From: a virus
Reading direction: 5' to 3' (one strand)
Length of the DNA stretch: 36,763 nucleotides
IMG/VR virus record: IMGVR_UViG_3300045988_134073
Span: 1 to 36,763 of that record
Shown: one piece after another, positions 3,249 through 36,763 of the stretch
Position numbering within the stretch: position 1 is the stretch's first letter
How the letters are laid out: each line of letters begins with the position of its first letter
Notes under the pieces: generated by a model
Database searches by the model: none
What the model saw: the letters and a program-made list of their open reading frames with translations, nothing else
Told to the model about the DNA's origin: nothing
Made by a program: the position numbers and the translations under genes

Positions 3249-3365
3249 AGTGTTAATGTGCTAATATGCTAATGTGCTAATGTGGCCAATGTGCTGCTAA
3301 TAGGTTAATGAGTTAAGGATTGTGCCACTCATTAGCACATTAACACATTAGCATATTGGCACATT
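3249..3365. repeat. Zipper hairpin R2 (gctaatgt arrays, different centre)
   Basis: Left arm 3252-3313, loop taaggattgtgcc at 3314-3326, right arm 3327-3365. Confidence 0.85.
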
Positions 3366-3446
3366 CAACGTTGTGTGAAATATTGTTTAAGGGTGTTGAA
3401 TTGCCCAAAGTTCCGTAAATCGTAAAAAATGCTCGCGCAAAAAAAA

Positions 3447-3502
3447 GGGTTTGGGCGGGGTTTAACGCACCCCCACCCCCCTTAAAAAAAACCGCCCCCC
3501 CT
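3447..3502. promoter_or_regulatory. Candidate cos region (G/C-tract cluster)
   Basis: gggtttgggcggggtttaacgcacccccacccccc ttaaaaaaaa ccgcccccc, lying between HNH and terS. Confidence 0.35.
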
Positions 3503-3558
3503 GTTGGTGTGACGCTGATGAGCGATGAAGGTAGGGCAGAAGGCCACGTTTCTTACTC

Positions 3559-3621
3559 CGTTTTCGGTCGTTTTTTGTTCGTTTTCGGTCGTTTTTGGTA
3601 CGTTTTCGGTCGTTTTTGAGT
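3559..3621. repeat. Three 21-bp direct repeats (cgttttcggtcgttttt...)
   Basis: Copies at 3559-3579, 3580-3600 and 3601-3621. The 21-bp period equals two helical turns. Candidate terS or packaging-protein binding sites. Confidence 0.8.
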
Positions 3622-3624
3622 GCC

Positions 3625-4250: not shown

Positions 4251-4261
4251 TGTTATTTTTT

Positions 4262-4374
4262 TAATATGCTAATGTGCAAATGTGCAAATGTGCAAATGGT
4301 CGCCTTTGTACGCTGAGTAATTAAAACATTATTCAATCATTTGCACATTTGCACATTCGCACATTTGCACATTC
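4262..4374. repeat. Zipper hairpin R3 (gcaaatgt arrays, 40-nt core)
   Basis: Left arm 4262-4298, core gtcgcctttgtacgctgagtaattaaaacattattcaatc at 4299-4339, right arm 4340-4374. Confidence 0.9.
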
Positions 4375-4375
4375 A

Positions 4376-4504
4376 TCAAGCCCTCTCTTGTTTGGTCTTG
4401 CCTTCTGATCGTTCCCTCTCGCGATAGGCCTCAGCGCGGCCCTCAAAGTAGCCGCGCCACAGTCCTCGCTCGCGGCCTAACACGTAGGCCACATAATTAC
4501 TCAT
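4376..4504 (-). CDS. Small hypothetical protein (42 aa), paralogous to the C-terminus of the next ORF
   Basis: Translated by hand as MSNYVAYVLGRERGLWRGYFEGRAEAYRERERSEGKTKQERA. It shares the RERG..GY..GRAE.Y motif with 4552-4854. Confidence 0.35.
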   Translation of the reverse strand: MSNYVAYVLGRERGLWRGYFEGRAEAYRERERSEGKTKQERA

Positions 4505-5236: not shown

Positions 5237-5556
5237 TCGGGGGTATTAGGTAGGAAGGACTCAGAGTAGGCCCAATACATTACGCAGAACGCTTCACAAA
5301 ACGTTTTCCAATTCATTACTTCTGGAATGAAGTAGTGAGTGGACACAAAAGGGTCTTCCGTAGAGCCATCCCATACCACTAATGGCCCGCTGGCATCGTT
5401 CGGATACTCATCGCGTGAGTGCCATAGCGCGTCAAGGCGACGGAACTCTACGGTGTGGGCGGCGTCGCGCTCGCGCAGTAAGTCAATGTGTAAGGGCGCG
5501 CCCGCCTCTACGTCCTCAGGGCGCGCAAAGAGTTGATTAACAAAAGTTTCATTCAT
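5233..5556 (-). CDS. Hypothetical protein
   Basis: 107-aa ORF with a 4-nt overlap to the downstream ORF. Confidence 0.5.
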   Translation of the reverse strand: MNETFVNQLFARPEDVEAGAPLHIDLLRERDAAHTVEFRRLDALWHSRDEYPNDASGPLVVWDGSTEDPFVSTHYFIPEVMNWKTFCEAFCVMYWAYSESFLPNTPE

Positions 5557-5818
5557 AGTTCAGCCATTTATCTTCATAGTATAACCATTTATCTTTAAAG
5601 TCAGCCATTACTCGGTCGTTGTAAGTCTTGTCCTTCTCCTGATATAGGGCGAAAGTGTTTTTACACCCGAAAAAGGGAATTAACTCAATGCGGATTACGT
5701 CACATCGGCCGCTAAAGCTAACCTCGACGAGGCTTGCACGCGTGTTGAATTGCATCGTCTGTGCCTCACGAAGGTAGACTAAGATGTCGGCCTTCGTCGT
5801 CTTCTTCGCTTGTGTCAT
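5549..5818 (-). CDS. Hypothetical protein
   Basis: 89-aa ORF, part of the overlapping operon chain. Confidence 0.5.
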   Translation of the reverse strand: MTQAKKTTKADILVYLREAQTMQFNTRASLVEVSFSGRCDVIRIELIPFFGCKNTFALYQEKDKTYNDRVMADFKDKWLYYEDKWLNYE

Positions 5819-9470: not shown

Positions 9471-9647
9471 GAGGAGTGTGGGAGTCGAACCCACTAATGT
9501 GCGATTGTTTCGAAGCTTATCCACTGCACGCCCAATAACCCAAAACCAACTTCATGCAGCAGACGACGATACCTCTCTTTGCCGCCTATCCGATTAACGG
9601 CCTATACTCCTCGTCTTTTCCATTACTATTCTCACGAACCGTAATGG
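9471..9647 (-). ncRNA. tRNA-like RNA unit 1 (142-nt body plus 5' hairpin)
   Basis: 7-bp acceptor gaggagt/actcctc, D-loop GTTAATCGGATAG and T-arm gtggg-TTCGACT-cccac, with about 87 nt between the D and T arms. The 5' hairpin is at 9620-9647. Confidence 0.5.
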
Positions 9648-9690: not shown

Positions 9691-9815
9691 AACGCGGTCG
9701 GGAGTTGAACCCGACTAACGGCCTAAGCGCCTCAGCCTATTAGTGAGCGCGGTCTATCCGATTAACCACCTATCGCGTTATATTGACTATTCTATTCCTC
9801 ACGAACCGAATAGTC
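9691..9815 (-). ncRNA. tRNA-like RNA unit 2 (89-nt body plus 5' hairpin)
   Basis: Acceptor aacgcg/cgcgtt, the same D-loop as unit 1, and T-arm tcggg-TTCAACT-cccga. The anticodon loop is a non-canonical 9 nt (CTAATAGGC) and the variable region is long. The 5' hairpin is at 9785-9815. Confidence 0.5.
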
Positions 9816-12823: not shown

Positions 12824-14095
12824 TTACCCCCTTACATAATCAATCACGCGCCTCACGGCTTCATCTACCTTCTTAGCGTTTCGCCTTATATATATGTCGG
12901 CCATTGGATAGGGCGACTTGTGACCTAAAGCAGCATCTATCACTGCATCAGGCACGTCAAGTTCTGAGGCCAACGTTGCCCACGTGTGGCGCGCCCAATA
13001 GGAGGTAAGATCGGGAAACAAACCGCTATACACTTTCACCCGTTCTTTCGCCCGTTTGCCCTTATGCTTTACGTACACATAACACGACGGACCAACACGT
13101 TGCAGCCCGTCATTCACGTTACGAAGGAAACCCTTCCACGCCTCAACGCCACCGCTCAAACGCTCGCCAAAATAAAGCAAACGTTTCACCCCCTTATAAC
13201 GCTCAATAATCTCCAGCGCTTCAGGTGGAACCGTCAGCCGACACACAACCCCCGTTTTGCTCCGCCTGTATTCAATCACGCCACTCTCATTCAGCGGAGG
13301 CAACTCCATGAGGTCAATCATATTAATGCCCGCCAGATAAAACGAAAGCATAAAAAGGTCGACATACCTCTTTTGCCACTCTTCGCAAGGGTAACGCATC
13401 AACCGCCTCAAATCCTCCAACCTTAGCGAGCGTTTCATCGTTTCCTCCTTCTTTATCTTAAATCGCCTAAAAGGATACATTTCGGCCGGTATCACCTCTT
13501 CATCTATTGCAGCATTAAACACGGCACGAATATTGCGAAAGTGTATGCCCCGCGTGTTCGTGCTGCAGGTGTCAGCCATCCAAACCTCAAAATCCTTCAG
13601 CCACCCCACCGTCACATCTTTAAAGCACAACTCCTCCAACTTACAAAACTTCCTCAACTTCTGTAAAGTCATTTTATACACGCCCGCCGTTCTTTCCTTC
13701 TTACACCGACTCACAAACGTTTCAGCAAACGGCAAAAAACGCGCTTCCTCCTGTTTCTCCTCTCCAACGGCCTCACCCCCATTCCCATTCAACTCCAGCC
13801 GATCGAGCAAAGCCGCCTTAATCTCGCTTGCCCTCATTGCTTGAACATCATTAAAGCACGCCACCTCTTCAACAGTCAATTGCACCTTTGCCATTTTCAG
13901 TCGCAGCAACTGCGTCAGCTGTGCCGCCATGGGCGCGCCCACCACCCTACCGTTCACAAACTCTCCCTCGCGCAACATCACCCCCGTGCTCAGCATTGCC
14001 GACGTTCCACGATTGTAAATAACGATACAAAGCCGCCCTTTCCCTTGTTCGTCCTTACGCCTTAAATCTAAATACCACTTTAATTTATATGCCAT
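12824..14095 (-). CDS. int: Tyrosine integrase (Bacteroidota type with N-terminal arm-binding domain)
   Basis: 423 aa. Catalytic-region motifs ARHTWAT, LGH and DIYIRR. Adjacent to attP. Confidence 0.9.
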   Translation of the reverse strand: MAYKLKWYLDLRRKDEQGKGRLCIVIYNRGTSAMLSTGVMLREGEFVNGRVVGAPMAAQLTQLLRLKMAKVQLTVEEVACFNDVQAMRASEIKAALLDRLELNGNGGEAVGEEKQEEARFLPFAETFVSRCKKERTAGVYKMTLQKLRKFCKLEELCFKDVTVGWLKDFEVWMADTCSTNTRGIHFRNIRAVFNAAIDEEVIPAEMYPFRRFKIKKEETMKRSLRLEDLRRLMRYPCEEWQKRYVDLFMLSFYLAGINMIDLMELPPLNESGVIEYRRSKTGVVCRLTVPPEALEIIERYKGVKRLLYFGERLSGGVEAWKGFLRNVNDGLQRVGPSCYVYVKHKGKRAKERVKVYSGLFPDLTSYWARHTWATLASELDVPDAVIDAALGHKSPYPMADIYIRRNAKKVDEAVRRVIDYVRG

Positions 14096-14266: not shown

Positions 14267-14319
14267 TCGGGGCGACGGGATTCGAACCCACGACCCCCTG
14301 CTCCCAAAGCAGGTGCGCG
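14267..14319 (-). tRNA. Partial tRNA-Pro(UGG), 3' 53 nt only; attP core
   Basis: The minus strand reads cgcgca-cctgc-TTTGGGA-gcagg-gggtc-gtggg-TTCGAAT-cccgt-cgccccg-a. That covers the anticodon arm, T-arm and 3' acceptor strand. There is no 5' half. Confidence 0.85.
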
Positions 14320-16140: not shown

Positions 16141-19100
16141 TTATAAGGGAGGCCCGATTTCTGCCTTATATGTGAACCCAGTACCAGGGTTTAGCGTACC
16201 AGCAAATTTAAAATTGTCTACTTTTAATTCGTCTACTGCACCGTCATATTGCCAATAGAATTGTCCGTCAGTCCCGACACACATGGTCAATGCTACCAGA
16301 CCTTTTGCGAGCGTTAACTTTGCCTTGAAATCAGTTTCCCCAGTCTTAAAGAAACGGCCATAAAGGGCTATTTCGTAACTTCCGACATTATTGTAGATGA
16401 CTAATTTGCAACCGATGAGAGCGAGTGCTTGCTGAATGTCTTCGTCCTTACTGCCATAAGGTGGTAACTTCCAACATCGATAATTTTTTGTTACTTTAAT
16501 CTTCGTATCAGCGGTGCTTTCGTCGACCGTTACCGTTTCGGGTAATGAGTTAACATTGATAATGGTTGATAGATTAGGGATAATGGGGTATGCGTACTTT
16601 GTATAGGCTTTAGCTGTTGTCGTGCCTGTAACATCAAACGTTCTTAACTCGAGATAGTTTTCACAGTTAGTAGTATCTATAGTAGTTACCGAGTTAAGCT
16701 GCATACCCGTTGTAATGCCGTTAAATACACCTTGGTCAGCATATATTGTGCCTTTGAAGTAGTATTGTTGGTGTACTGGGTCGATTGCGACTTTCAGTAT
16801 GTTGTGGTCTAATGCGTACATACCAACGACTGTATTGCCCCCTATCTGCAATCCGTTAGACGACATCATGCACCCTGTGTAAGTGCCGTCAATCTCTTTT
16901 CGGCCGAAGAACGCGTTGCCACTTGCTATGTAATTGTCACCGCTCATGGTATAGCCGTTGAAGGCTTTCATCCAGTCGGGCAAAGAGACGGCTTTCTTGT
17001 CCATTTCGTTTAAGCACCAATCGGAAGCGTTTTTGCCTACTTCGAGTTTTACTTGATTGATAGCGATGAAGTCACCGCTTGTGCCTATTGTTGCTCTGAA
17101 TAGTAAGAGCGGACTGGAGTAAGAGCCGTCAGCGCGGACGCGGAATGTGTAGATATGGCGCACCCATTCTGCGGTTAGCTCCCATGTATGGCTTCCGTCA
17201 TTCTTAAATGCAGTTTCCTTCACTCCGTCAGCCATTGGCATATCTGCGCTTGCATCAGACAAGACGCGTCCTCCATAATCATATACGTATGTGTTGAGAC
17301 TACCCGAGCCGCGTGCGTAGAAAGAAAGCGTGTACCATTGCCCCGAATTGATTGTTGAGCCTAACGATTGCGAATAAAAGTCAAACTCGCGTTCGCTGCT
17401 TCGCCATGCGCACAAAGAGTTAATGCCGCAGAACGTATCCATGTTGGACGGTGTCGCCATGCGAATGAGCTGCGCATCATTCTGAATGTAGCCGTCAGCG
17501 GTTAATGCTGAGCCACCGCCGTATGGCCTACCCAAAGTGACCATTGAGATGTCTGCTTGCGCTCCACTTGACAATCGTACGAGTACATACTTTGTGCCGC
17601 TCAGGCTTGACTTTGTGGCGAATGCGATGTAATGTCGTTGCCATGTTGAGGTCAACGCAAATGCGGCACTTGCGTCGTCACTTGGAGAGCCTCCTGCCTT
17701 TCCGTCAACGTAGATAGTTTGCTCGTTCGTGTCGGGGTAACAATATACGGTAGCAGTACCAGAGCCACGCATTGTAATGCCTATAACGTACCACGTCTGA
17801 GGGCCAATCAACTTTGTTACATCGTATTGGAATATGTCCGTCTGTGTTGAGACAGAAGCTGAGAGCATATCCGTATCGCCCACCGCTGCACCTTCATTCA
17901 GAGTGCCGCTAATCGTGGCGAGCGAGGAGCGGAAATTGAGCCACGTGCCAGCATAGTTCTCCGCCTTTGGCGCGAAGTCGGTATGCACGAGTAAGTTGTT
18001 ATGCAGGCTTGTCCCGTCAGCTCCGTCTTTGCCGTTCGTACCGTCCTTACCATTCCAAACGACAGGAATACTTTTTTGTGCTACTTCGACTTCGTTAACG
18101 AATAACTTAAACTCAATACATGTCGCGTGTAGATAATCAATCGTTACCGTATCTCCTGTGCCTTCTTTTTGTATCGTAGTACCGTCTCTGCTATAAATGG
18201 CCCACTTCATTATCCCCCCTGGAAACTTCGTTGATTTTAATCCTTGCGTTCGGTAGGCTTCAACGGTAATCGTCTTTTGGCTATAAGAGGGCATGGTAGT
18301 GCCTTGTTGTGTTCGCGATATTGACCCAACGGGAGCGAGAATGTAATAGGCTGCACCGTCATCGCCTTTTGGACCGATAGGGCCTTGTAATCCTTGGTCG
18401 CCCTTCTCTCCCTTATCGCCTTTATCACCCTGGATTCCTTGGTCGCCCTTATCGCCCTTATCGCCTTTATCGCCTTGGTTCCCTTGGTCGCCCTTATCGC
18501 CCTTTTCGCCTTGGCTGCCTGGGTCGCCTTTATCGCCCTTAGCACCGTCCTTCCCGTCAACGCCATTAATACCGTCCTTCCCAACGAAGCCAATTAACTC
18601 TGTAGTCTCAGTGCCGTCGGGATAAAATGTGCGTTTCCAAATGTACTTACCTTGCGCCACGTCAGTAGGGAACGTACTACTCCAATCATGATTAGGCGCG
18701 CTCGTCCCATTATCACTAACGGCCCATTTGTAGGTCGTTTGGCTCTGTGGCCCCCATTTGATCGTGACATTGTTCCCTATTGTAACGTTACCTTTGCCGT
18801 CGTATTCGATAGCCCCTTGTCCGAGTTCGAACGAGCCGTCAGGGTTGAGGCTGTAGTGAGTGGTCTGGCCGTCGGGTGAGAGGGAAATGATTTGCCCATT
18901 CTTGGCGTAAAGGCCAAAGCCACCCGTGGGGAGGTAACCACCGAGGCGACAAGCGAGACAACCGACAAAGCTCTTGGTGGTGATACCCGTGAGTAAGTCG
19001 ATAGCAGGTTGGCCCGTTCCGTTGGCGTGAATGTAAATGGCGCTTTGACGTGTGGGGTCGGTAGCGTTGCCGTATTGTACCAACTCGTCGCCTACTTCGG

Positions 19101-20187
19101 GGAACACCATTAATCCTGCAGTGGTGGGGTTGCTATTGTCGGCAAGGAGCATGGACGTGCCGTCGTCGGCAGTAATGAGGGCGGTACGGTCGTCTGTTAC
19201 GAGTTGGGCTACTTGTGCGGTGACTTCTTGCACGTGGTCGTAAGCGTTGACCTCTCCTGCCTGAGGTTCGACAATGGCGGCGTCGAACTCCGACCTATTA
19301 ATGGCCAACACATTGTCGTGGCCGCCAGCTGTGCTGCCTATGAAGCTAACTCTGACCCAATAGCCGCGAGCGCCATTCGTTGTCCAACGTTGGCAGCGTA
19401 TGAAGTCGTTAGCTTGGAAGCCTCCGTAGCCGTGTGTGTCGTCCCCCTCTAATACTAAGTAATAGTTCGTAGCGTCCCCGTCCACACTCTTCACGCGGCC
19501 GCATGCTTGACTGATCCCCAGCGCGCCACAAATGGCACGTATCTTTTCGATGACGAGTTCAAAGGCCGTGAGCCTTCCGCGAATGCGGAGGTTGTCAGCC
19601 TCCACGTAAGTTTTACCGTCCGCGGCCGTTTGTGCAGCCCACCCACTGCCCGCGAAGCCATTGCTCGCGAAGTCGGGGCTTTGTGCTGAGGCTTCGAAGT
19701 TGGTAGCCTTGCGGAAGGTGACGCTCCCCTCGGCCGTGTCGTCGTGTTGGCGGCTTAGGTAACGCTCGTCAGCTGTACCCCATTGCGTAAGGTCGTCGGC
19801 CGTGGCGGCATGAGTGGCTTCGGCTGCATGATCGGCTTCTGTGGCATGGGCCGCGTTGTCAGCATTCGTGGCGCGGTCGGCCGTGGTGGCGTGGTTGGCT
19901 GAGGTAGCCTCATCGGCAAATCCCGCCTTCACCTTTGTGCGGACGATTCCGCCCGTGTCGGTGTCGGTACTATCAAGATAGAGGTAGCCGTCGGCAGGAG
20001 TGGCGTCCAACTGATTAAGCGTGTCGAGGTTGGCGTGTGTGTGCGCATCGGCCGACGAAGTACTGCCGCCGCTGATGTAAGCACCTCCACCGCCACTGCT
20101 GCTTGTGGCTGCGGCCTCAGCGTTATTGCCTTTGCGCGCTTTGCGTGGCGTGGCTGTAACGTATCGTGTTTTAACTTTATAGTCCAT
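16141..20187 (-). CDS. Tail fibre / host-specificity protein with collagen-like domain
   Basis: 1348 aa. About 75 residues of Gly-X-Y repeat (GKDGINGVDG...GDKGDKGDQG...) and an N-terminal HAT.AD low-complexity repeat. Confidence 0.8.
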   Translation of the reverse strand: MDYKVKTRYVTATPRKARKGNNAEAAATSSSGGGGAYISGGSTSSADAHTHANLDTLNQLDATPADGYLYLDSTDTDTGGIVRTKVKAGFADEATSANHATTADRATNADNAAHATEADHAAEATHAATADDLTQWGTADERYLSRQHDDTAEGSVTFRKATNFEASAQSPDFASNGFAGSGWAAQTAADGKTYVEADNLRIRGRLTAFELVIEKIRAICGALGISQACGRVKSVDGDATNYYLVLEGDDTHGYGGFQANDFIRCQRWTTNGARGYWVRVSFIGSTAGGHDNVLAINRSEFDAAIVEPQAGEVNAYDHVQEVTAQVAQLVTDDRTALITADDGTSMLLADNSNPTTAGLMVFPEVGDELVQYGNATDPTRQSAIYIHANGTGQPAIDLLTGITTKSFVGCLACRLGGYLPTGGFGLYAKNGQIISLSPDGQTTHYSLNPDGSFELGQGAIEYDGKGNVTIGNNVTIKWGPQSQTTYKWAVSDNGTSAPNHDWSSTFPTDVAQGKYIWKRTFYPDGTETTELIGFVGKDGINGVDGKDGAKGDKGDPGSQGEKGDKGDQGNQGDKGDKGDKGDQGIQGDKGDKGEKGDQGLQGPIGPKGDDGAAYYILAPVGSISRTQQGTTMPSYSQKTITVEAYRTQGLKSTKFPGGIMKWAIYSRDGTTIQKEGTGDTVTIDYLHATCIEFKLFVNEVEVAQKSIPVVWNGKDGTNGKDGADGTSLHNNLLVHTDFAPKAENYAGTWLNFRSSLATISGTLNEGAAVGDTDMLSASVSTQTDIFQYDVTKLIGPQTWYVIGITMRGSGTATVYCYPDTNEQTIYVDGKAGGSPSDDASAAFALTSTWQRHYIAFATKSSLSGTKYVLVRLSSGAQADISMVTLGRPYGGGSALTADGYIQNDAQLIRMATPSNMDTFCGINSLCAWRSSEREFDFYSQSLGSTINSGQWYTLSFYARGSGSLNTYVYDYGGRVLSDASADMPMADGVKETAFKNDGSHTWELTAEWVRHIYTFRVRADGSYSSPLLLFRATIGTSGDFIAINQVKLEVGKNASDWCLNEMDKKAVSLPDWMKAFNGYTMSGDNYIASGNAFFGRKEIDGTYTGCMMSSNGLQIGGNTVVGMYALDHNILKVAIDPVHQQYYFKGTIYADQGVFNGITTGMQLNSVTTIDTTNCENYLELRTFDVTGTTTAKAYTKYAYPIIPNLSTIINVNSLPETVTVDESTADTKIKVTKNYRCWKLPPYGSKDEDIQQALALIGCKLVIYNNVGSYEIALYGRFFKTGETDFKAKLTLAKGLVALTMCVGTDGQFYWQYDGAVDELKVDNFKFAGTLNPGTGFTYKAEIGPPL
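18355..18585 (-). repeat. Collagen-like Gly-X-Y coding repeat
   Basis: 9-nt periodic DNA (ggcgataag-type units) encoding GDKGDKGDQG. Confidence 0.9.
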
Positions 20188-22583: not shown

Positions 22584-22596
22584 AGTATGTTTTTTT

Positions 22597-22734
22597 AATG
22601 TGCAAATGTGCGAATGTGCAAATGCGTGGTTAATGTGCAAATGTGCGAATGTGCAAATGATTGAATAATGTTTTAACTACTCAGCGTGCAAAGGCGACCA
22701 TTCGCACATTTGCACATTCTCACATTTGCACATT
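22597..22734. repeat. Zipper hairpin R4 (gc(a/g)aatgt arrays, core inverted)
   Basis: Left arm 22597-22659, core 22660-22699, right arm 22700-22734. The core is the reverse complement of the R3/R9 core with 2 mismatches. Confidence 0.9.
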
Positions 22735-22738
22735 AACT

Positions 22739-25849: not shown

Positions 25850-25922
25850 ATATTTATAGATTTTTATTTGGTTGGTAATTTATAAAGTCACACCTTTGCA
25901 AAGGACTAATACCTTTTGCGAT

Positions 25923-26261
25923 ATGAAAAGCGAACAAATCCCGAAAGAGATTAAAGCAGAGTTTAGCAGCGAAGTAAAAGAAACAATACCCTCAGAAAAG
26001 AAGAAAAAGCGAAACAAAAGAGCTTTATGGGTAAGCACCTATTTGGGTTATGCTTCATTCTTTTTCTTTTGCGATAGCATATACTTTTACGCTACAACAG
26101 AAACGTGGACAGACGCTCGTGTCTTTTTTGTAGCAGCATTCATGGCCCTGTCGATCCTCTTATTCTTTGCCTCAGCAGTGGCCGACTCGTATTACGATTT
26201 CCCTGATTATAAGGATATTAAACGTAGTAATGGTGGTGAGAACGACTACGATTATTTGTAA
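25923..26261 (+). CDS. Small two-TM membrane protein (plus-strand moron)
   Basis: Start trimmed to MKSEQIPKE. Two hydrophobic helices, AT-rich, and on the opposite strand inside the tail module. Confidence 0.5.
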   Translation: MKSEQIPKEIKAEFSSEVKETIPSEKKKKRNKRALWVSTYLGYASFFFFCDSIYFYATTETWTDARVFFVAAFMALSILLFFASAVADSYYDFPDYKDIKRSNGGENDYDYL

Positions 26262-26290
26262 AGCACATAGTGGCCTCCAAAGCCGCCTTA

Positions 26291-28634: not shown

Positions 28635-28650
28635 TCTTCCTTTCTTTCTT

Positions 28651-28797
28651 GTTGACGAGTTCACAGGTAAGTTTGTTGACGAGTTCACGAGTTGACGAGT
28701 TAACAGGTAAGTTTGTCTTGTGAGCTAACTTACTCGTCAACTTGTTAACTCGTCAACTTGTTAACTTGTTAACTCGTCAACTTGTCAACTTGTCAAC
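28651..28797. repeat. Zipper hairpin R5 (gttgacgagtt(a/c)ac units)
   Basis: The left arrays pair with gttaactcgtcaac arrays. The centre is near 28714-28725. Confidence 0.85.
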
Positions 28798-29259: not shown

Positions 29260-29261
29260 AG

Positions 29262-29427
29262 GGTTAATGTGCTAATGCGTTAATGTGCTAATGCGTTAAT
29301 GTGCTAATGTGCTAATGTGGTAATGTGCTAATGTGGTAATGTGCTAATGTGCCAATGTGTTAATGTGCTAATGTGTTAATGAGTGGCGCAGCCATTAGCA
29401 TATTAACACATTAGCATATTAGCACAT
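29262..29427. repeat. Zipper hairpin R6 (gctaatg(t/c) arrays, centre gagtggcgcagcc)
   Basis: Left arm 29262-29380 (119 nt), centre 29381-29393, right arm 29394-29427 (34 nt). Confidence 0.9.
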
Positions 29428-29904: not shown

Positions 29905-30184
29905 AATGTGTTATGAGTTTAATGAGTTGATGAGTTTAATTAGTTTAATGAGTTGATGAGTTTAATTAGTTTAATGAGTTTAATGGGTTTAATGAGTTAA
30001 TACTTGCACAATGTCTTAAGGCTTTTGCCCTTACAGGGCGCGACTGCTCCAACGCGTGATACCCAGGGTGTCGCTTCGCTTGCCCTGGGCTATGTGCTCC
30101 ATTGGGCTTTCAGCCCGCCCTTGCTAAATCTGAAACTTGAATAAACTTATTAAACTCACTAAACTTATTAAACTAATTAAACTC
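29905..30184. repeat. Zipper hairpin R7 (gagtt(t/g)aat arrays) with REP copy C in its loop
   Basis: Left arm 29905-30003, REP element 30013-30132, right arm 30133-30184. Confidence 0.85.
30013..30132. repeat. REP/MITE-like element, copy C (inverted relative to A)
   Basis: Reverse complement of 1-120 with about 4 mismatches. Confidence 0.85.
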
Positions 30185-30740
30185 CCTTCTTCGCCGCCTT
30201 ATCGACGTTGCGCTCGAAGTCAGTCCAAAGGCGCTGCTCGATGCCAGCCGCTTCGGTCTGCTCGGTCATGGCGAGAAACTTATACGGAGACATACGCCCC
30301 GTGCTATGGCCTGAGCGGCTATAGTCGCGCCACTTCTTCTGAGCGAAGCGGCCTTGGCGATATTGCGCGTTGCCCTTGCGACGGCCCACGTTGCGCTGTT
30401 TCGTACCTTCCTCAGCAAATAGGAGTACAGGCTTCTGCTTGCCCTGTCGGTTGGTATGTATGCCCTTCTTCGCTCCGTGGGGCTTAACGCTCACCATAAA
30501 GCCCGTGCCGTAGCGCTTGGGGTAGAGGCGAGCGTAAACGCCCTTGTCCACCCCCGTCTTGGTCGAAAGGCCCGAAGTGCGCACCTTCGTCTGTGCTGCC
30601 TTCTTTAGGCGATTGGCCTCACGCCTCATCGAGGCGGCAATGGCCTTGCGCTGCTCCTTAGGCGAGAGGCTGGCGTAAAGCTTTGCCAATTCGCGTTGGA
30701 AGGTCTGCAGCGCTTTCTCGTTGTCGTTATCCATTAGCAA
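30177..30740 (-). CDS. HK97 gp10-like tail/head-tail component
   Basis: 187 aa. Called from position and basic composition. Confidence 0.5.
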   Translation of the reverse strand: MLMDNDNEKALQTFQRELAKLYASLSPKEQRKAIAASMRREANRLKKAAQTKVRTSGLSTKTGVDKGVYARLYPKRYGTGFMVSVKPHGAKKGIHTNRQGKQKPVLLFAEEGTKQRNVGRRKGNAQYRQGRFAQKKWRDYSRSGHSTGRMSPYKFLAMTEQTEAAGIEQRLWTDFERNVDKAAKKGV

Positions 30741-31111
30741 CGGAGTTTAAAGGAGAGTGACTGCAAGTAAGCATCGTCCGTCCACGACTCAGCGGCATCG
30801 ACTAAGTAAGACGAACGGACGGTCAACCCTGCCGAGGTGGTAATGCTCACGTTGTCAAGCGCTTCGCGTACGGCCTCAGCCAAAGCCACAGAGCCATTGT
30901 AAGTAGCGGCATAACAATCCACTACGATCGTGGCCGTATCGGCACTTTGAGCATGTTTGGCAACGGCCGTTTCGAGGGCCTCGCGATGATAGCAGACGTA
31001 AGGAAGCACGGCCTCATCTGTCACGACGGGAAATACTTTCGTTACTTTATCAGCTAACCTTTCGCTCAGCACCTCGTAGACGGCAGTGCCTGCGCTTAAT
31101 ACTGTTTTCAT
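30734..31111 (-). CDS. Tail completion protein (DUF3168-like)
   Basis: 125 aa between the head-closure gene and the gp10-like gene. Confidence 0.45.
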   Translation of the reverse strand: MKTVLSAGTAVYEVLSERLADKVTKVFPVVTDEAVLPYVCYHREALETAVAKHAQSADTATIVVDCYAATYNGSVALAEAVREALDNVSITTSAGLTVRSSYLVDAAESWTDDAYLQSLSFKLRC

Positions 31112-31552
31112 TACTTTAGGTGTTAGGGATTAGTGATTAGTGATTAGGTGTTAGGGATTAGTGATTAGTGATTAGGTGTTAGGGATTAGGGATTAGTGAT
31201 TAGGTGTTAGGGATTAGGGATTAGGGATTAGGGATTAGTGATTAGGTGTTAGGGATTAGGGATTAGGGATTAGGGATTAGTGATTAGGTGTTAGGGATTA
31301 GGGATTAGGGATTAGGGATTAGTGATTAGGTGTTAGGGATTAGGGATTAGGTGTTAGGGGTTGGGGGTAGGTTGGGGGTAGGTTGGGGGTAGGTTGGGGT
31401 CAGGGGGCTAAAAAGTTTGTTTTTGTGGGGAGCGAGGCATAAGGAGACCTTTTAACCCCCTAATCACTAATCACTAACACCTAACACCTAATCACTAATC
31501 ACTAACACCTAACACCTAATCACTAATCCCTAACACCTAACACCTAATCTCA
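31112..31552. repeat. Zipper hairpin R8 (gattag(g/t) and gtgttagg units plus G-tract repeats), 441 bp
   Basis: Left arm about 31118-31350. taggttggggg repeats at 31357-31408. Right complementary arm at 31456-31550. Confidence 0.9.
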
Positions 31553-31858
31553 TCACACGTTGACGCGCTGACAGAGGAGCGACAGCATTCCCTTACTGCG
31601 GTTAGGCTCAATGGCCATAACGGTGTAGAGGTGTTCGCCCATGAGCTGCACGCGCCACCCCTCACCAATGGGGTGTACATCGCGTATGCGGAAGGTCACG
31701 GTGTAAGCGGCAAAGTGTTCGCCCACCTCTTCACTCCGATTGCCCGCCCACTTGACGCGCTCGGCCCAAATCGTTCGGGTCGGGGCGAAAGTGGTTTGCT
31801 CTTCGCCATATTCGTTCGTCGTCTGAACGGGGCGAAAGAGTTGTAAGTGATATCTCAT
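31553..31858 (-). CDS. Head closure / head-tail adaptor protein
   Basis: Start at MRYHLQLFRPVQTTNEYGEE, with an ATGA overlap to the upstream stop codon. Typical head-tail joining pattern. Confidence 0.65.
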   Translation of the reverse strand: MRYHLQLFRPVQTTNEYGEEQTTFAPTRTIWAERVKWAGNRSEEVGEHFAAYTVTFRIRDVHPIGEGWRVQLMGEHLYTVMAIEPNRSKGMLSLLCQRVNV

Positions 31859-32169
31859 TCCTCCCGCACGCATAGTCTTCTGTATTGTTTGATGATAGAT
31901 GAAGCGCCCCACGGGATTTCACTGTACTGCTGCGGAGCATCGTTTTCGCGGTGGTCGTAGGCCGAGCCTCCTACCAACAGAATAGCTTGCACCAAGGGGG
32001 CGGGCAGTGACCCACCGCCCATTAGCTTTAGCTCATCGAGTGTGCGGTTTGTAGCGCGCACCACTGAAGCCTCAGCGGCATCAAGGCATTGCTGTAGGTA
32101 GTCGTCGTCGTCGCTAAAATCATCGGCGCGAACGTGTTTTTTAAATAGGGATAGGGCTACTTCTGACAT
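31855..32169 (-). CDS. gp6-like head-tail connector
   Basis: 104 aa with the motif ADDFSDDDDYLQQCLDAAEASV. Confidence 0.65.
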   Translation of the reverse strand: MSEVALSLFKKHVRADDFSDDDDYLQQCLDAAEASVVRATNRTLDELKLMGGGSLPAPLVQAILLVGGSAYDHRENDAPQQYSEIPWGASSIIKQYRRLCVREE

Positions 32170-32251
32170 AATATGAATGTGTGCTTAGTCTCTAAAGATT
32201 ACTATTTCCATGACTTATCATTACAAATGTGGCTCTTCGTGCGCTCCGTTA

Positions 32252-32317
32252 CCCATCACCGAGAAGTTGAAAACCCCTCACCGAGAAGTCTGAAACCCAT
32301 CACCGAGAGGTAGAGAG
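32252..32317. repeat. Three 22-bp direct repeats (ccc(a/c)tcaccgaga(a/g)gt...)
   Basis: Copies at 32252-32273, 32274-32295 and 32296-32317. There is no inverted partner. Confidence 0.8.
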
Positions 32318-32336
32318 CGCATCGCTGAGCGCGTCG

Positions 32337-32714
32337 CTACGACATTGCGTACTGTGCTTGCTCTTGCAACTGCTTGTTGAGCGTGCTTGAGGGGAGGAAC
32401 GCGACGTGGAGCGAGCGAATGTGCTTCGCGCTTACATCGTCTTTGTTCATCTCGCCCCCATTTGAGCGCAATGTAGTGCGGAATGAGCCAAGTGAGCCAA
32501 GCTTTACCATACCGCCACTTTGTAACTTTTCGGCAATGGCCTCCTCAAAGGCGCAAAGGGCCGTGAGTACGTCGGCATGGGTGAAGGTGGTTGACTCGCT
32601 TATGCGCTCGCAAAGTTTGTCGCGCGTGATAGTACCGCTATAGCTGATAGCGGGGTAGTAGCGCCACTTTTGGTCGCGTGAGTTCTTGATACTACGTGTT
32701 ACTAATTTAATCAT
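32337..32714 (-). CDS. HU-like DNA-binding-fold protein (Bacteroidota HU-HIG type)
   Basis: 125 aa containing ...ALCAFEEAIAEKLQSGGMVKLGSLGSFRTTLRS... Confidence 0.6.
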   Translation of the reverse strand: MIKLVTRSIKNSRDQKWRYYPAISYSGTITRDKLCERISESTTFTHADVLTALCAFEEAIAEKLQSGGMVKLGSLGSFRTTLRSNGGEMNKDDVSAKHIRSLHVAFLPSSTLNKQLQEQAQYAMS

Positions 32715-32726
32715 GATTGTAGAGCT

Positions 32727-33134
32727 TTATTGGTTTTTCTTCTTATTGGCTTTATATACATTCTTAAACTCGACGTTCTTGAGTAATAGCTTATTATTAA
32801 TCCACGTCGAAGGCACGTAGCGCACGCGGGCTTTCTGAACGAGTGCTGAACTTACATCGTCTTTGATTTCGACGCCTACTGACTTCGCAGTAAGGCGAAA
32901 CGCCCCCAATGAGCCAAGGCGAACGGTATAACCAGAGAGCAGCGCGTGAAGTACTTGTCGTTCAAGTTCTTTGAGTACACCCATAGCGTCGGCACGCGTG
33001 AGGGTACACTTCGCGCTGATTTCAGCTGCCAACTGTTCGAAGTTGGTAACGGCCGCAGGTAGGGGCGCGGGGTAGAACATGTTCTCGCCAGTCTTAAAGT
33101 TTTTGCGAGCGAGGGGTTTGTATAGATAGGTCAT
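32727..33134 (-). CDS. HU-like DNA-binding-fold protein, paralogue
   Basis: Start trimmed to MTYLYKPLARKNF. Contains ...VLKELERQVLHALLSGYTVRLGSLGAFRLTAKS... Confidence 0.6.
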   Translation of the reverse strand: MTYLYKPLARKNFKTGENMFYPAPLPAAVTNFEQLAAEISAKCTLTRADAMGVLKELERQVLHALLSGYTVRLGSLGAFRLTAKSVGVEIKDDVSSALVQKARVRYVPSTWINNKLLLKNVEFKNVYKANKKKNQ

Positions 33135-33310
33135 AGGAAATGTGCAAATGTGTAAATGTGCAAATGTGCAAATGGTTGAATGATGTTTTATAATCAATGT
33201 GCTTAATGTGCAAATGCTGAGTTAATGTGCGAATGTGCGAATGGTCGCCTTTGTACACTGAGTAATTAAAACATTATTCAATCATTCGCACATTTGCACA
33301 TTTGCACATT
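33135..33310. repeat. Zipper hairpin R9 (gc(a/g)aatgt arrays, core plus extra half-core)
   Basis: Arrays at 33138-33174 and 33196-33243, half-core at 33175-33195, core at 33244-33283, right arm at 33284-33310. Confidence 0.9.
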
Positions 33311-33319
33311 AGTAAGCGC

Positions 33320-35133: not shown

Positions 35134-35136
35134 AAG

Positions 35137-35300
35137 GTGTAAATGTGCTAATGTGGGAATGTGCTAATGTGGGAATGTGCTAATGTGGGAATGTGCTAAT
35201 GTGGGGATGTGCTAATGTGTTAATGAGTGGCGCAGCCATTAGCATATTAACACATTAGCATATTAACACATTAGCATATTAACACATTAGCATATTAATA
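35137..35300. repeat. Zipper hairpin R10 (gctaatgtgggaat arrays, centre gagtggcgcagcc)
   Basis: Left arm 35137-35224, centre 35225-35237, right arm 35238-35300. Confidence 0.9.
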
Positions 35301-35307
35301 ATGTGTG

Positions 35308-36623: not shown

Positions 36624-36708
36624 CAGTGTTTAAAGCAATGTTCACCGAAAGATTTCTCAAGGTATCAGTTGGTTTAGACAAAGCGGTAAAACATTAATAC
36701 TCAAGTTC

Positions 36709-36763
36709 CAGATTTAGCAAGGGCGGGCTGAAAGCCCAATGGAGCACATAGCCCAGGGCAAGC
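36709..36763. repeat. 55-bp terminal overlap identical to 1-55
   Basis: Exact identity, checked base by base. Confidence 0.95.

Follow-up and report, generated by a model that had tools for sequence, protein, structure and literature searches.

The stretch of DNA analyzed here (the window, 36,763 nt in full) is the IMG/VR virus record IMGVR_UViG_3300045988_134073, and our subject is a 441-bp repeat-filled spacer at positions 31112–31552 within it. The window represents a complete temperate siphophage of Prevotella/Alloprevotella of ~36.7 kb with overlapping ends, and it encodes an integrase with a tRNA-fragment attP, a CI-like repressor, and HNH-TerS-TerL, portal, protease, capsid, and tail genes. 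Its head genes share ~70% nucleotide identity with those of Bacteroides phage Bacuni_F1, near-identical copies of the phage occur in an uncultured Prevotella genome, and an 87%-identical copy is carried by an Alloprevotella metagenome-assembled genome (L013). The spacer is non-coding throughout and forms the exact stop-to-ATG interval between two late genes on the minus strand. The upstream gene (31553–31873) encodes a homolog of the head-closure protein Hc1 (phrog_25, E = 9e-11; PF05521 Phage_HCP in relatives); its stop codon is the TGA at 31555–31553, and a second in-frame TGA comes next. The downstream gene (30734–31111, with its ATG at 31111) encodes a tail-terminator/tail-completion homolog (phrog_347, E = 1e-8, as well as phrog_123). 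These matches agree with the head-closure and tail-completion context proposed in a preliminary description of the sequence, which had also correctly taken the G-rich strand to be the template strand of the late genes, as these lie on the minus strand.

Tandem Repeats Finder (TRF) delineated a period-7 array at 31123–31359 (consensus TTAGGGA, 33.9 copies, 83% matches) that is also organized into a higher-order 42-nt unit of four TTAGGGA, one TTAGTGA, and one TTAGGTG heptamer (5.6 copies, 92% matches). An adjoining array at 31359–31399 consists of 3.7 perfect copies (100% matches) of GGTTGGGGGTA, giving six tracts of 4–5 G, and the C-rich arm at 31459–31549 is built from a 28-nt unit (3.2 copies, 98% matches). 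The two arms constitute an inverted repeat in which 31116–31204 is 91% complementary to 31459–31547, with a second pairing of 31142–31233 to 31458–31549 at 89%. The TRF and inverted-repeat results reproduce the heptamer arrays, G-tract block, centre, and complementary C-rich arm that had been noted at the outset, including the estimate that the left arm is roughly 2.5 times as long as the right (233 vs. 95 nt).

Read in the sense of the late mRNA, the TGA is followed by 5 nt, a 92-nt arm of G, U, and A, GGGGG, a 48-nt centre, CCCCC, and a C-tract block, and then by ~240 nt of nearly G-free heptamers, AAAGTA, and the ATG. All of these parts are given on the minus strand. The 5′ hairpin arm (31458–31549), supported by TRF, the inverted repeat, composition, and folding, comprises 3.2 copies of the 28-nt unit of TTAGGTG/TTAGTGA heptamers and contains no C in 97 nt. 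The unique 48-nt centre (31408–31455; sense sequence TTAAAAGGTCTCCTTATGCCTCGCTCCCCACAAAAACAAACTTTTTAG) is clamped by the GGGGG/CCCCC pair. The C-tract block (31357–31407) reads (CCCCAACCTAC)n in the mRNA, the complement of the 3.7 GGTTGGGGGTA copies on the template strand; the 5′ arm has hardly any sequence to match it, and predicted folds leave most of it unpaired. TCCCTAA/TCACTAA/CACCTAA heptamers make up the 3′ arm (31116–31356), and only two G residues occur in the 296 nt of the total 3′ arm. Its outermost ~90 nt (31116–31204) pair with the 5′ arm, and its inner ~195 nt (46% C, 0.5% G), an allele-specific expansion of the 42-nt unit (5.6 copies), are predicted to be unpaired.

The predicted folding energy of the sense RNA was −142 kcal/mol, compared to −62 ± 4 for shuffled sequences (z = −18), and that of the plus strand as single-stranded DNA was −78, compared to −28 for shuffles (z = −14). 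The predicted sense stem has ~98 pairs, and its base lies 5 nt past the upstream stop and 4 nt short of the ATG. The 237-nt array exceeds short-read resolution, which leaves its copy number, and hence the figure of 441 bp, uncertain. An independent assembly that evidently represents the same strain (L006) has the flanks of the window and N-gaps within the array.

The spacer belongs to a set. We use the term zipper for a unique centre preceded by a G/T-rich arm of tandem repeats and followed by its C/A-rich complement, and our detector called a zipper wherever a tandem array of period 6 to 12 was followed within 200 nt by an array of the reverse-complement unit. It returned 10 zippers in the window, filling the stop-to-start gaps of co-directional late genes, and the 441-bp spacer is the biggest of them, as the preliminary description had held. 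Their repeat units differ (TAATGTGC, AATGTGCA, GTTGACGA, ATGAGTTTA, and TTAGGGA); the architecture is common to them and the sequence is not. Besides the head closure–tail terminator zipper (31112–31552, TTAGGGA heptamers), the set, all on the minus strand, includes four members of family A, namely those between portal and protease (35134–35307; TAATGTGC-type 8-mers with the loop GGCTGCGCCACTC), between tail tube and amidase (29260–29427), between TerS and TerL (2786–2900), and immediately upstream of TerS (3249–3370, a variant). Family B is represented between the capsid and an HU-HIG gene (33135–33319; AATGTGCA 8-mers with the centre GGTCGCCTTTGTAC...), between the tape measure and the next tail gene (22584–22738; its centre is inverted relative to those at 4298 and 33243), and upstream of p90 (4255–4380), where the first zipper of the late region is found. 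The remaining two lie between amidase and p146 (28635–28797; 8-mers GTTGACGA/AACTCGTC) and between p183 and tail tube (29905–30176; 9-mers TAAACTCAT), the loop of the latter holding a half copy of a palindrome found at 1–264. In IMG/VR, the family A loop is confined to the phage lineage of the window. Zipper DNA had no match in deposited phage genomes; only phages of the Bacuni_F1 type share the capsid, and these are without zippers, the genes of Bacuni_F1 tightly abutting at the equivalent junctions.

We compared the head closure–tail terminator junction across 31 contigs whose Hc1 and tail-terminator proteins are 90–100% identical to those of the window. An unrelated 23-nt spacer (tgcttaaagacgatactccgctt) and no zipper was present in 11 of them, 19 had zippers of 164–314 nt that use a common heptamer vocabulary in differing copy numbers, and the last (L006) is N-gapped. 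The observed spacer lengths were 23, 164, 210, 213, 216, 223, 225, 232, 234, 236, 253, 258, 297, 314, 441, and 499 nt, the last of these including Ns. So many lengths among contigs with nearly identical flanking proteins support the earlier suggestion that the spacer is a hot spot for slippage. The 48-nt centre was kept in all 19 zipper-bearing relatives and is recognizable in the Alloprevotella relative. Counting the 15 distinct, fully resolved zippers (164–441 nt), the Alloprevotella form, and the N-gapped form, there are 17 zipper alleles, with the 23-nt form kept separate. The 3′ (C/A-rich) arm exceeded the 5′ arm in every one of the 15 resolved alleles, from 48/68 nt to 125/141 nt, and the window, at 97/296 nt, is the extreme. 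The window allele is the most expanded form of this zipper, and its (TTAGGGA)n runs reflect amplification, specific to this allele, of one among several heptamer variants. The arms covary in one relative (L015), in which two copies of the variant gtAttag in the 5′ arm correspond to two of ctaaTac in the 3′ arm.

Variation of the same kind was seen at other zipper junctions of these relatives, with spacers of 14–406 nt between portal and protease, 10–229 nt between amidase and p146, and 49–289 and 89–264 nt at two more. The amidase–p146 spacers form a graded series (10 nt, a one-armed 38-nt array, a 70-nt hairpin, and then 102 to 229 nt). Between tail tube and amidase, relatives carry family A, family B, or two tandem hairpins, with the loop in both orientations, and at the p183–tail tube junction many keep only a G-free one-armed array before the start codon. 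A control spacer devoid of zippers (HU2–Ad1, 32170–32336) measured 166–170 nt in 26 of the 31 relatives, 191 nt in three, and 145 nt in L013; it contains 22-nt direct repeats (ACCCATCACCGAGAAGTCTGAA, 2.6 copies). Identity of the flanking coding DNA was 93–98% across the relatives; the genes on either side of the head closure–tail terminator spacer were ~97% identical even though that spacer ranged from 23 to at least 441 nt. The same zipper architecture recurred in MEGAHIT, SPAdes, and JGI assemblies of many samples, which rules out an assembly artifact as the source of the element, although the exact copy number remains exposed to such error. We also rejected a role as a recombination linker between modules, as the identity jumps at zipper junctions were no larger than those at control junctions. 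We conclude that arm copy number changes by slippage of 7- to 9-nt units and of higher-order 28- and 42-nt units; that whole zippers are gained, lost, and swapped between junctions and their centres inverted; and that the 441-bp spacer is the biggest member of a dispensable, hypervariable family of inverted tandem repeats found between late genes in some gut Bacteroidales phages.

Zippers are not spread evenly over the phage. Among gaps longer than 90 nt, 10 of 13 in the late operon contain a zipper, compared to none of nine in the early/lysogeny region (Fisher P = 4.6e-4), where non-coding gaps are as large as those of the late operon. In eight integrated or circular relatives, zippers start only upstream of the HNH-TerS genes: none was detected in the eight overlapping ~9-kb copies of the early region (~74 kb) or in ~30 kb of host flank, against an expectation of about 30 at late-region density. 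We then sorted the IMG/VR capsid relatives by identity. All 19 loci of the 93–95% class have zippers, at 4.1 per 10 kb, compared to one of 38 in the 71–79% class and none of 23 in the 48–55% class. Zippers are thus absent from 60 of the 61 distant loci, and the sole positive one is on contig 175129. Particular lineages, including structurally unrelated phages, carry 3–5 zippers per 10 kb.

A survey of geometry in 50 zippers from six genomes, representing at least three phage types, returned simple rules. None of the 50 lies inside an open reading frame (ORF), 42 of 47 are situated between co-directional genes, and they typically begin and end ~0–25 nt from the stop and start codons. The arm with more G than C is 5′ and the arm with more C than G is 3′ in every zipper; by symmetry this polarity holds on both strands, yet it wholly rules out the opposite class. 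The arm on the side of the start codon was the longer one in 26 zippers and the shorter one in nine (P = 0.006).

The late operon of the window also encodes two paralogous HU-HIG (PF18291) DNA-binding proteins (32337–32714 and 32727–33134, minus strand), between the capsid and connector genes. Among the capsid relatives, HU-HIG and amidase genes occur in the late region only in the lineage of the window and in contig 175129, which has three HU-HIG paralogs. An alignment search with HU-HIG recovered five further contigs with 6–10 zippers each, built of AAGTTGAA/AACTCATC-type units. Nothing in these contigs detectably resembles the capsid, portal, terminase, or tail genes of the window, and their terminase and protease families differ. 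Searching for the centre motif of this second family yielded two more zipper-bearing contigs, of which the fetched portion was too short for HU scoring. Alignments of the window centre with centres from the unrelated phages scored z ~5 over shuffles in pairwise comparison, but a profile made from the latter centres failed to recover the window centre (nhmmer, E > 0.1). HU-HIG genes co-occur with zippers across phages and may belong to a system shared with them.

The second family was also recorded in its own right. Its AAGTTGAA/AACTCATC zippers occur in L166 and L168–L171 (IMG/VR 171945, 175129, 172432, 177933, and 178118), where two or three duplications of the 3′ arm are frequent. A small palindrome (GAGGTNACCTC) inside the conserved centre, GTTAAGAGGTYACCTCTGC...AAAAGCGACCTCTTAAC, competes with the long-range stem. 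The motif GGTYNCCTYTG is found in the family B centres of the window as well and is absent from zipper-less phages.

Several established classes of element do not account for the zippers. An intrinsic terminator is excluded, as no zipper is followed by a U-tract and the 3′ arm runs directly into AAAGTA-ATG; no terminator-like site was found on the minus strand between 28000 and 36763. A miniature inverted-repeat transposable element or transposon would not fit alleles in which the filled form replaces the whole stop-to-start interval, no flank is shared, and there is no target duplication. The phage encodes no mobilizing enzyme of the HUH, RAYT, reverse transcriptase, or transposase type, and the lack of an HUH/RAYT gene, together with the zipper-free host flank, rejects a repetitive extragenic palindromic (REP) element or its BIME and REPIN derivatives. 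Units of 7–11 nt arranged head to tail without spacers are not a CRISPR array, whose repeats are 23–55 nt and separated by unique spacers. Against Rfam 15 families, only sub-threshold matches to eukaryotic microRNA precursors were obtained (27–50 bits, compared to gathering thresholds of 67–110). No Bacteroidetes promoter (TTTG ... TAnnTTTG) was seen by eye in the centre on either strand. Our literature searches found no prior description of such elements in Bacteroidales phages, which is not proof of absence.

The reading we favor, tentatively, is that a zipper acts within the late polycistronic mRNA as a slippage-prone hairpin that tunes both processing and translation of the downstream cistron, rather than through G-quadruplex (G4) or telomere-like DNA. 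The observations behind it are the stop-to-start position, the late restriction, the polarity, the expansion of the start-side arm, the hypervariability, and the dispensability. The G/U-rich 5′ arm, being transcribed first, would capture the C/A-rich 3′ arm as the latter emerges, forming a stem of 30–100 bp whose base would juxtapose the upstream stop (5 nt away) and the downstream start (4 nt away). The stem could then gate translation of the downstream cistron by blocking independent initiation, because Bacteroidetes ribosomes working without Shine-Dalgarno pairing need an unstructured initiation region; initiation in these bacteria is tuned by mRNA structure (PMC3155529, PMC6847099, PMC7797042). 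Two routes might open the gate: a ribosome terminating at the upstream stop could unwind the stem (translational coupling), or RNase III, which acts on duplexes spanning roughly two helical turns or longer, could cleave the stem, after which the leader would be C/A-rich, poor in G, and unstructured. Repeat number would set the balance between paired and free leader, making downstream expression heritable yet rapidly mutable. The window allele would represent an extreme free-leader state, with ~195 nt of C-rich, G-free RNA lacking a partner, and it may also let Rho load.

Several points weigh against this mRNA hairpin. Its mechanism is inferred wholly from position and composition. Within the main helices, G·U/G·T pairs favor the template strand (45 vs. 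19 in the window and 131 vs. 36 in the other phages), and the sense strand has conserved A·C mismatches, a bias in the wrong direction for a maximally stable sense RNA. Zippers are missing from the head closure–tail terminator junction in 11 of the 31 relatives and from other junctions in some, and no single copy is needed. The occurrence of centres in both orientations fits a structure-only or DNA-level role just as well as it fits one in RNA. Finally, all late genes are co-oriented, which makes transcription polarity inseparable from replication polarity. Because of these points, explanations by neutral repeats, by an HU-HIG-bound DNA structure, and, for the expanded allele, by Rho entry stay alive.

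The arrays may be neutral or selfish minisatellites, generated by replication slippage combined with template switching within a strand, through which an array is copied as its inverted complement, and tolerated in late spacers. We consider this somewhat unlikely, but much of the variation would follow from it: any one copy is dispensable and length varies freely, the amidase–p146 series is graded and one-armed arrays also occur at the p183–tail tube junction, and each arm has been homogenized by its own duplications (28 nt in the 5′ arm, 42 nt in the 3′ arm). The A·C mismatches in the sense RNA and the lack of an encoded mobilizing enzyme point the same way. Neutral repeats should not, however, be restricted to the late operon when early gaps are equally large, spare the host flanks, be missing from nearly all distant capsid relatives yet dense in particular lineages that include structurally unrelated phages, or display an invariant polarity, a systematically longer start-side arm, and a conserved 48-nt centre. 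A DNA-level element, in which cruciforms or slipped hairpins are extruded with the aid of negative supercoiling behind RNA polymerase and bound by phage HU-HIG so as to organize, condense, or regulate late DNA, seems to us quite unlikely. HU-family proteins do prefer distorted or cruciform DNA. HU-HIG is present in every zipper-rich contig that could be checked (the 19 of the window lineage, L013, 175129, and the five unrelated contigs), no HU-HIG lies within ±8 kb in the 60 capsid relatives that lack zippers, and HU genes directly adjoin zippers. The greater stability of the template-strand hairpin owing to G·T pairs would also suit such an element, as would centres in either orientation, many of which hold the small palindrome GGTYNCC. 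The association is nevertheless confounded by a shared host or gene pool and by locus sampling, two HU-HIG-positive contigs (L172 and L173) have no zippers, two zipper-positive contigs show no HU in their fetched part, and a role in packaging or condensation would not predict late gaps that abut stop and start codons. The role proposed for HU-HIG, moreover, is in biological conflicts (PMC5499826).

Two further explanations turn on the unequal arms of the window allele. If the unpaired C-rich excess of the 3′ arm served as a Rho utilization (rut) site, the zipper would be a Rho-dependent attenuator: tail transcription would need antitermination or coupling, and leaky late transcription in the lysogen would be silenced, much as happens in other bacteria, where Rho keeps prophage and horizontally acquired genes silent. 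We regard this as improbable. In the window allele, the interior predicted to be unpaired (195 nt, 46% C, 0.5% G) does exceed the ~70–80 nt of unstructured RNA with C far in excess of G that is expected of a rut site, the G-rich arm comes first in all zippers and would mask the emerging C-rich arm so that only a repeat excess is exposed, and the arm that expands is the C/A-rich one. Most alleles, however, have little unpaired C-rich RNA (arms of 48/68 to 125/141 nt), the shorter, more symmetric ones not reaching what a rut site requires, and strong polarity ahead of essential tail genes would be costly. Least supported, and in our judgment highly improbable, is a model in which template-strand quadruplexes pause or block polymerases and thereby attenuate expression between head and tail genes. 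G4 potential was scored as at least four tracts of at least three G with loops of 1–7 nt, and as G4Hunter ≥1.5. The plus-strand scan that had been advised did place the only four canonical motifs of the 36.7 kb in the G-rich arm, at 31210–31407, with G4Hunter values of 2.35 at 31357–31408, the strongest region in the window, and 1.67 at 31334–31421. Many alleles, that of the divergent L013 among them, have the C-tract block beside the centre, and the G block is largely unpaired in the single-stranded DNA fold. Yet a canonical template-strand motif exists in just 11 of the 17 distinct zipper alleles and is lacking in the other six, 11 of the 31 relatives lack the zipper itself, and none of the nine other zippers of the window has a motif although they share its position, polarity, and variability. 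Allele-specific amplification accounts for the (TTAGGGA)n runs, and both duplex DNA and the hairpin keep most of the G-rich arm base-paired. The preliminary description had envisaged a G4-based pause or attenuation site; it had named free variation in spacer length, or absence from close relatives, as refuting this, and since both were observed a specific G4-dependent function is unlikely. Judged by sequence, what the expanded arm leaves unpaired is C-rich, G-free RNA, which resembles a Rho entry site more than a G4 block.

The resemblance to telomeres that had been remarked on stands only in part. TTAGGGA heptamers are present, intermixed with TTAGTGA and TTAGGTG, but the array is internal and intergenic, not at a replicon end. 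A telomere repeat is rejected on that ground and because the contig ends overlap (1–57 is identical to 36707–36763), indicating a circular or cos-type genome with HNH-TerS-TerL; the repeat of 1–57 at the other end means that the contig is circular. Neither a reverse transcriptase nor a protelomerase was found among the genes of the window. Both the telomere-like and the G4 appearance of the 441-bp spacer are probably incidental.

Returning to the mRNA hairpin, we also considered a bolder form of it, in which zippers constitute a previously undescribed, late-operon-wide hairpin rheostat with binding by HU-HIG, either to RNA or to extruded DNA, that is common to unrelated Bacteroidales phages. 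An obligatory G/U-first, C/A-second polarity would be part of this rheostat, as would fast mutation of the arms giving clone-specific ratios of late proteins. We think it unlikely in this full form.

Some other features of the window were noted. A 264-nt near-perfect palindrome at 1–264 (arms 3–72 and 195–264, 99% complementary; RNA fold of approximately −210 to −218 kcal/mol) lies between a helix-turn-helix/HicA-type moron and the portal gene, and its half copy in the p183–tail tube loop (30020–30130) is present or absent in relatives, sometimes without the 5′ arm of that zipper. The late operon has a second gap of 441 nt (25850–26290) that contains no zipper and is occupied by an opposite-strand ORF of 129 amino acids (25872–26261) with a membrane-associated look, which may be a moron. 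Between the HNH and TerS genes, the region 3366–3624 has opposed G- and C-tracts (gggtttgggcgggg ... cacccccacccccc ... ccgccccccc) and (CGTTTTCGGT)n, a 21-nt unit in 2.9 copies; by analogy with HK97-like HNH-TerS-TerL arrangements, it is plausibly a cos or terminase-binding region. Fragments resembling tRNA 3′ ends (e.g., gggattcgaacccacgacc) occur at 14270–14310, 9480–9530, and 9700–9760, and ARAGORN called no complete tRNA in the window; the fragment beside the integrase gene (12824–14095) likely forms the core of the attP through which the phage integrates at a host tRNA gene. Within the 1348-amino-acid tail-fibre ORF (16141–20187), 9-nt repeats encoding collagen-like Gly-X-Y triplets extend over 18391–18597 in higher-order units of 45 nt, and the product of a relative has a faint match to Collagen (PF01391). 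In a gap of the early region, 21-nt direct repeats at 5552–5609 (TTCATAGTTCAGCCATTTATC, 2.8 copies) may be an operator or iteron set.

If zippers do act on late mRNA, they would show how Bacteroidetes phages whose hosts are blind to Shine-Dalgarno sequences set the stoichiometry of virion proteins, and would extend short-repeat slippage, as a means of tuning at the population level, from bacterial contingency genes to a virus. A true link to HU-HIG would provide the first candidate nucleic acid partner for these proteins. If they are neutral, they would still be a striking lineage-specific proliferation of minisatellites and a fine-scale strain marker for a common human-gut Prevotella prophage. 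The phage is very common in human-gut metagenomes, with its integrase in 784 collection blocks, including Hadza samples. In 108 of the 155 collection blocks with the tail-terminator gene, no contig bearing the gene exceeds 2 kb, and N-gaps interrupt the array in some scaffolds; the short tail-terminator contigs are consistent with assemblies breaking at zippers. Since the arrays break short-read assemblies, copy numbers from metagenomic phages are untrustworthy without long reads.

Among known systems, several families of intergenic repeat invite comparison. REP/BIME elements (enterobacteria), REPINs (Pseudomonas), and BOX elements (S. pneumoniae) have been implicated in mRNA stability; the ends of a BOX element are partly complementary and enclose boxB repeats that differ in number. 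A REP is one short palindrome, its GTAG-type head conserved, that RAYT transposases mobilize and that is scattered over host chromosomes. Zippers, like these families (REPIN, PMC3116915), are strain-variable, imperfectly palindromic, intergenic, and often within operons. They differ from REPs in being made of 7- to 9-nt tandem repeats, in having no RAYT/HUH, in their absence from the sampled host flanks, and in that filled and empty sites differ by replacement of the whole spacer without a target duplication. The short tandemly repeated repetitive (STRR) heptamers of cyanobacteria (e.g., CCCCAGT and CCCCAAT) and the "variable but structured" intergenic regions of the Anabaena nif genes are also intergenic within operons, often occur as inverted sets able to form stem-loops, and differ in copy number between close strains. 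Zippers resemble them in all of these respects: tandem heptamers between genes, inverted sets, and variable copy number. STRRs, however, are chromosomal and genome-wide in heterocystous cyanobacteria, and to our knowledge neither a late-operon restriction nor a rule of arm polarity, both of which zippers show, has been described for them.

Phages offer other parallels. The start-associated sequences (SAS/ESAS) of cluster K mycobacteriophages and the PeSL cassettes of T4-type phages are repeated motifs or stem-loops located just upstream of start codons, and zippers are likewise repeated upstream of many starts within one phage genome. An SAS is a 13-bp motif of fixed sequence with the ribosome-binding site inside it, and PeSLs carry a promoter; zippers, in contrast, are built of tandem repeats and hypervariable in length, and a PeSL-like function as a recombination linker was not supported. 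The intercistronic RNase III sites of T7 are hairpins that divide polycistronic mRNA and affect the stability or translation of neighboring cistrons; having no U-tract, they are not terminators. Zippers, too, are intercistronic hairpins without a U-tract in what would be long phage transcripts. The T7 sites, however, are ~20–30 bp, with a fixed and conserved sequence and an internal bubble, unlike zippers, which consist of tandem repeats and are polymorphic in both length and presence.

Of the counterparts dissected by experiment, the closest is the 5′ untranslated region of hmw1A in H. influenzae, in which a heptameric simple sequence repeat (SSR) is paired with a G-rich arm, the duplex is a target of RNase III, and repeat number sets expression (PMC12721329). 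As in hmw1A, zippers place a heptamer array in the leader directly upstream of a gene, where the tandem repeats pair with a complementary G-rich segment into one long imperfect hairpin (transcription of the spacer being assumed from its co-directional position in the operon), and repeat number is naturally hypervariable between strains. The G-rich arm of hmw1A was itself noted to have G4 potential, but the hairpin mattered rather than the G4 (PMC12721329). The differences are that hmw1A is one bacterial virulence locus with a promoter-proximal leader and zippers occupy about 10 loci between phage late cistrons; that both arms of a zipper are tandem arrays; and that the order is reversed, with the G-rich arm 5′ and the pyrimidine-rich repeat arm 3′ in zippers. 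RNase III cleavage and effects on expression were shown for hmw1A, and by analogy zippers may have a counterpart of both. In architecture and position, zippers sit between SSR-hairpin leaders, phage RNase III sites, and the REP/BOX/STRR intergenic repeats.

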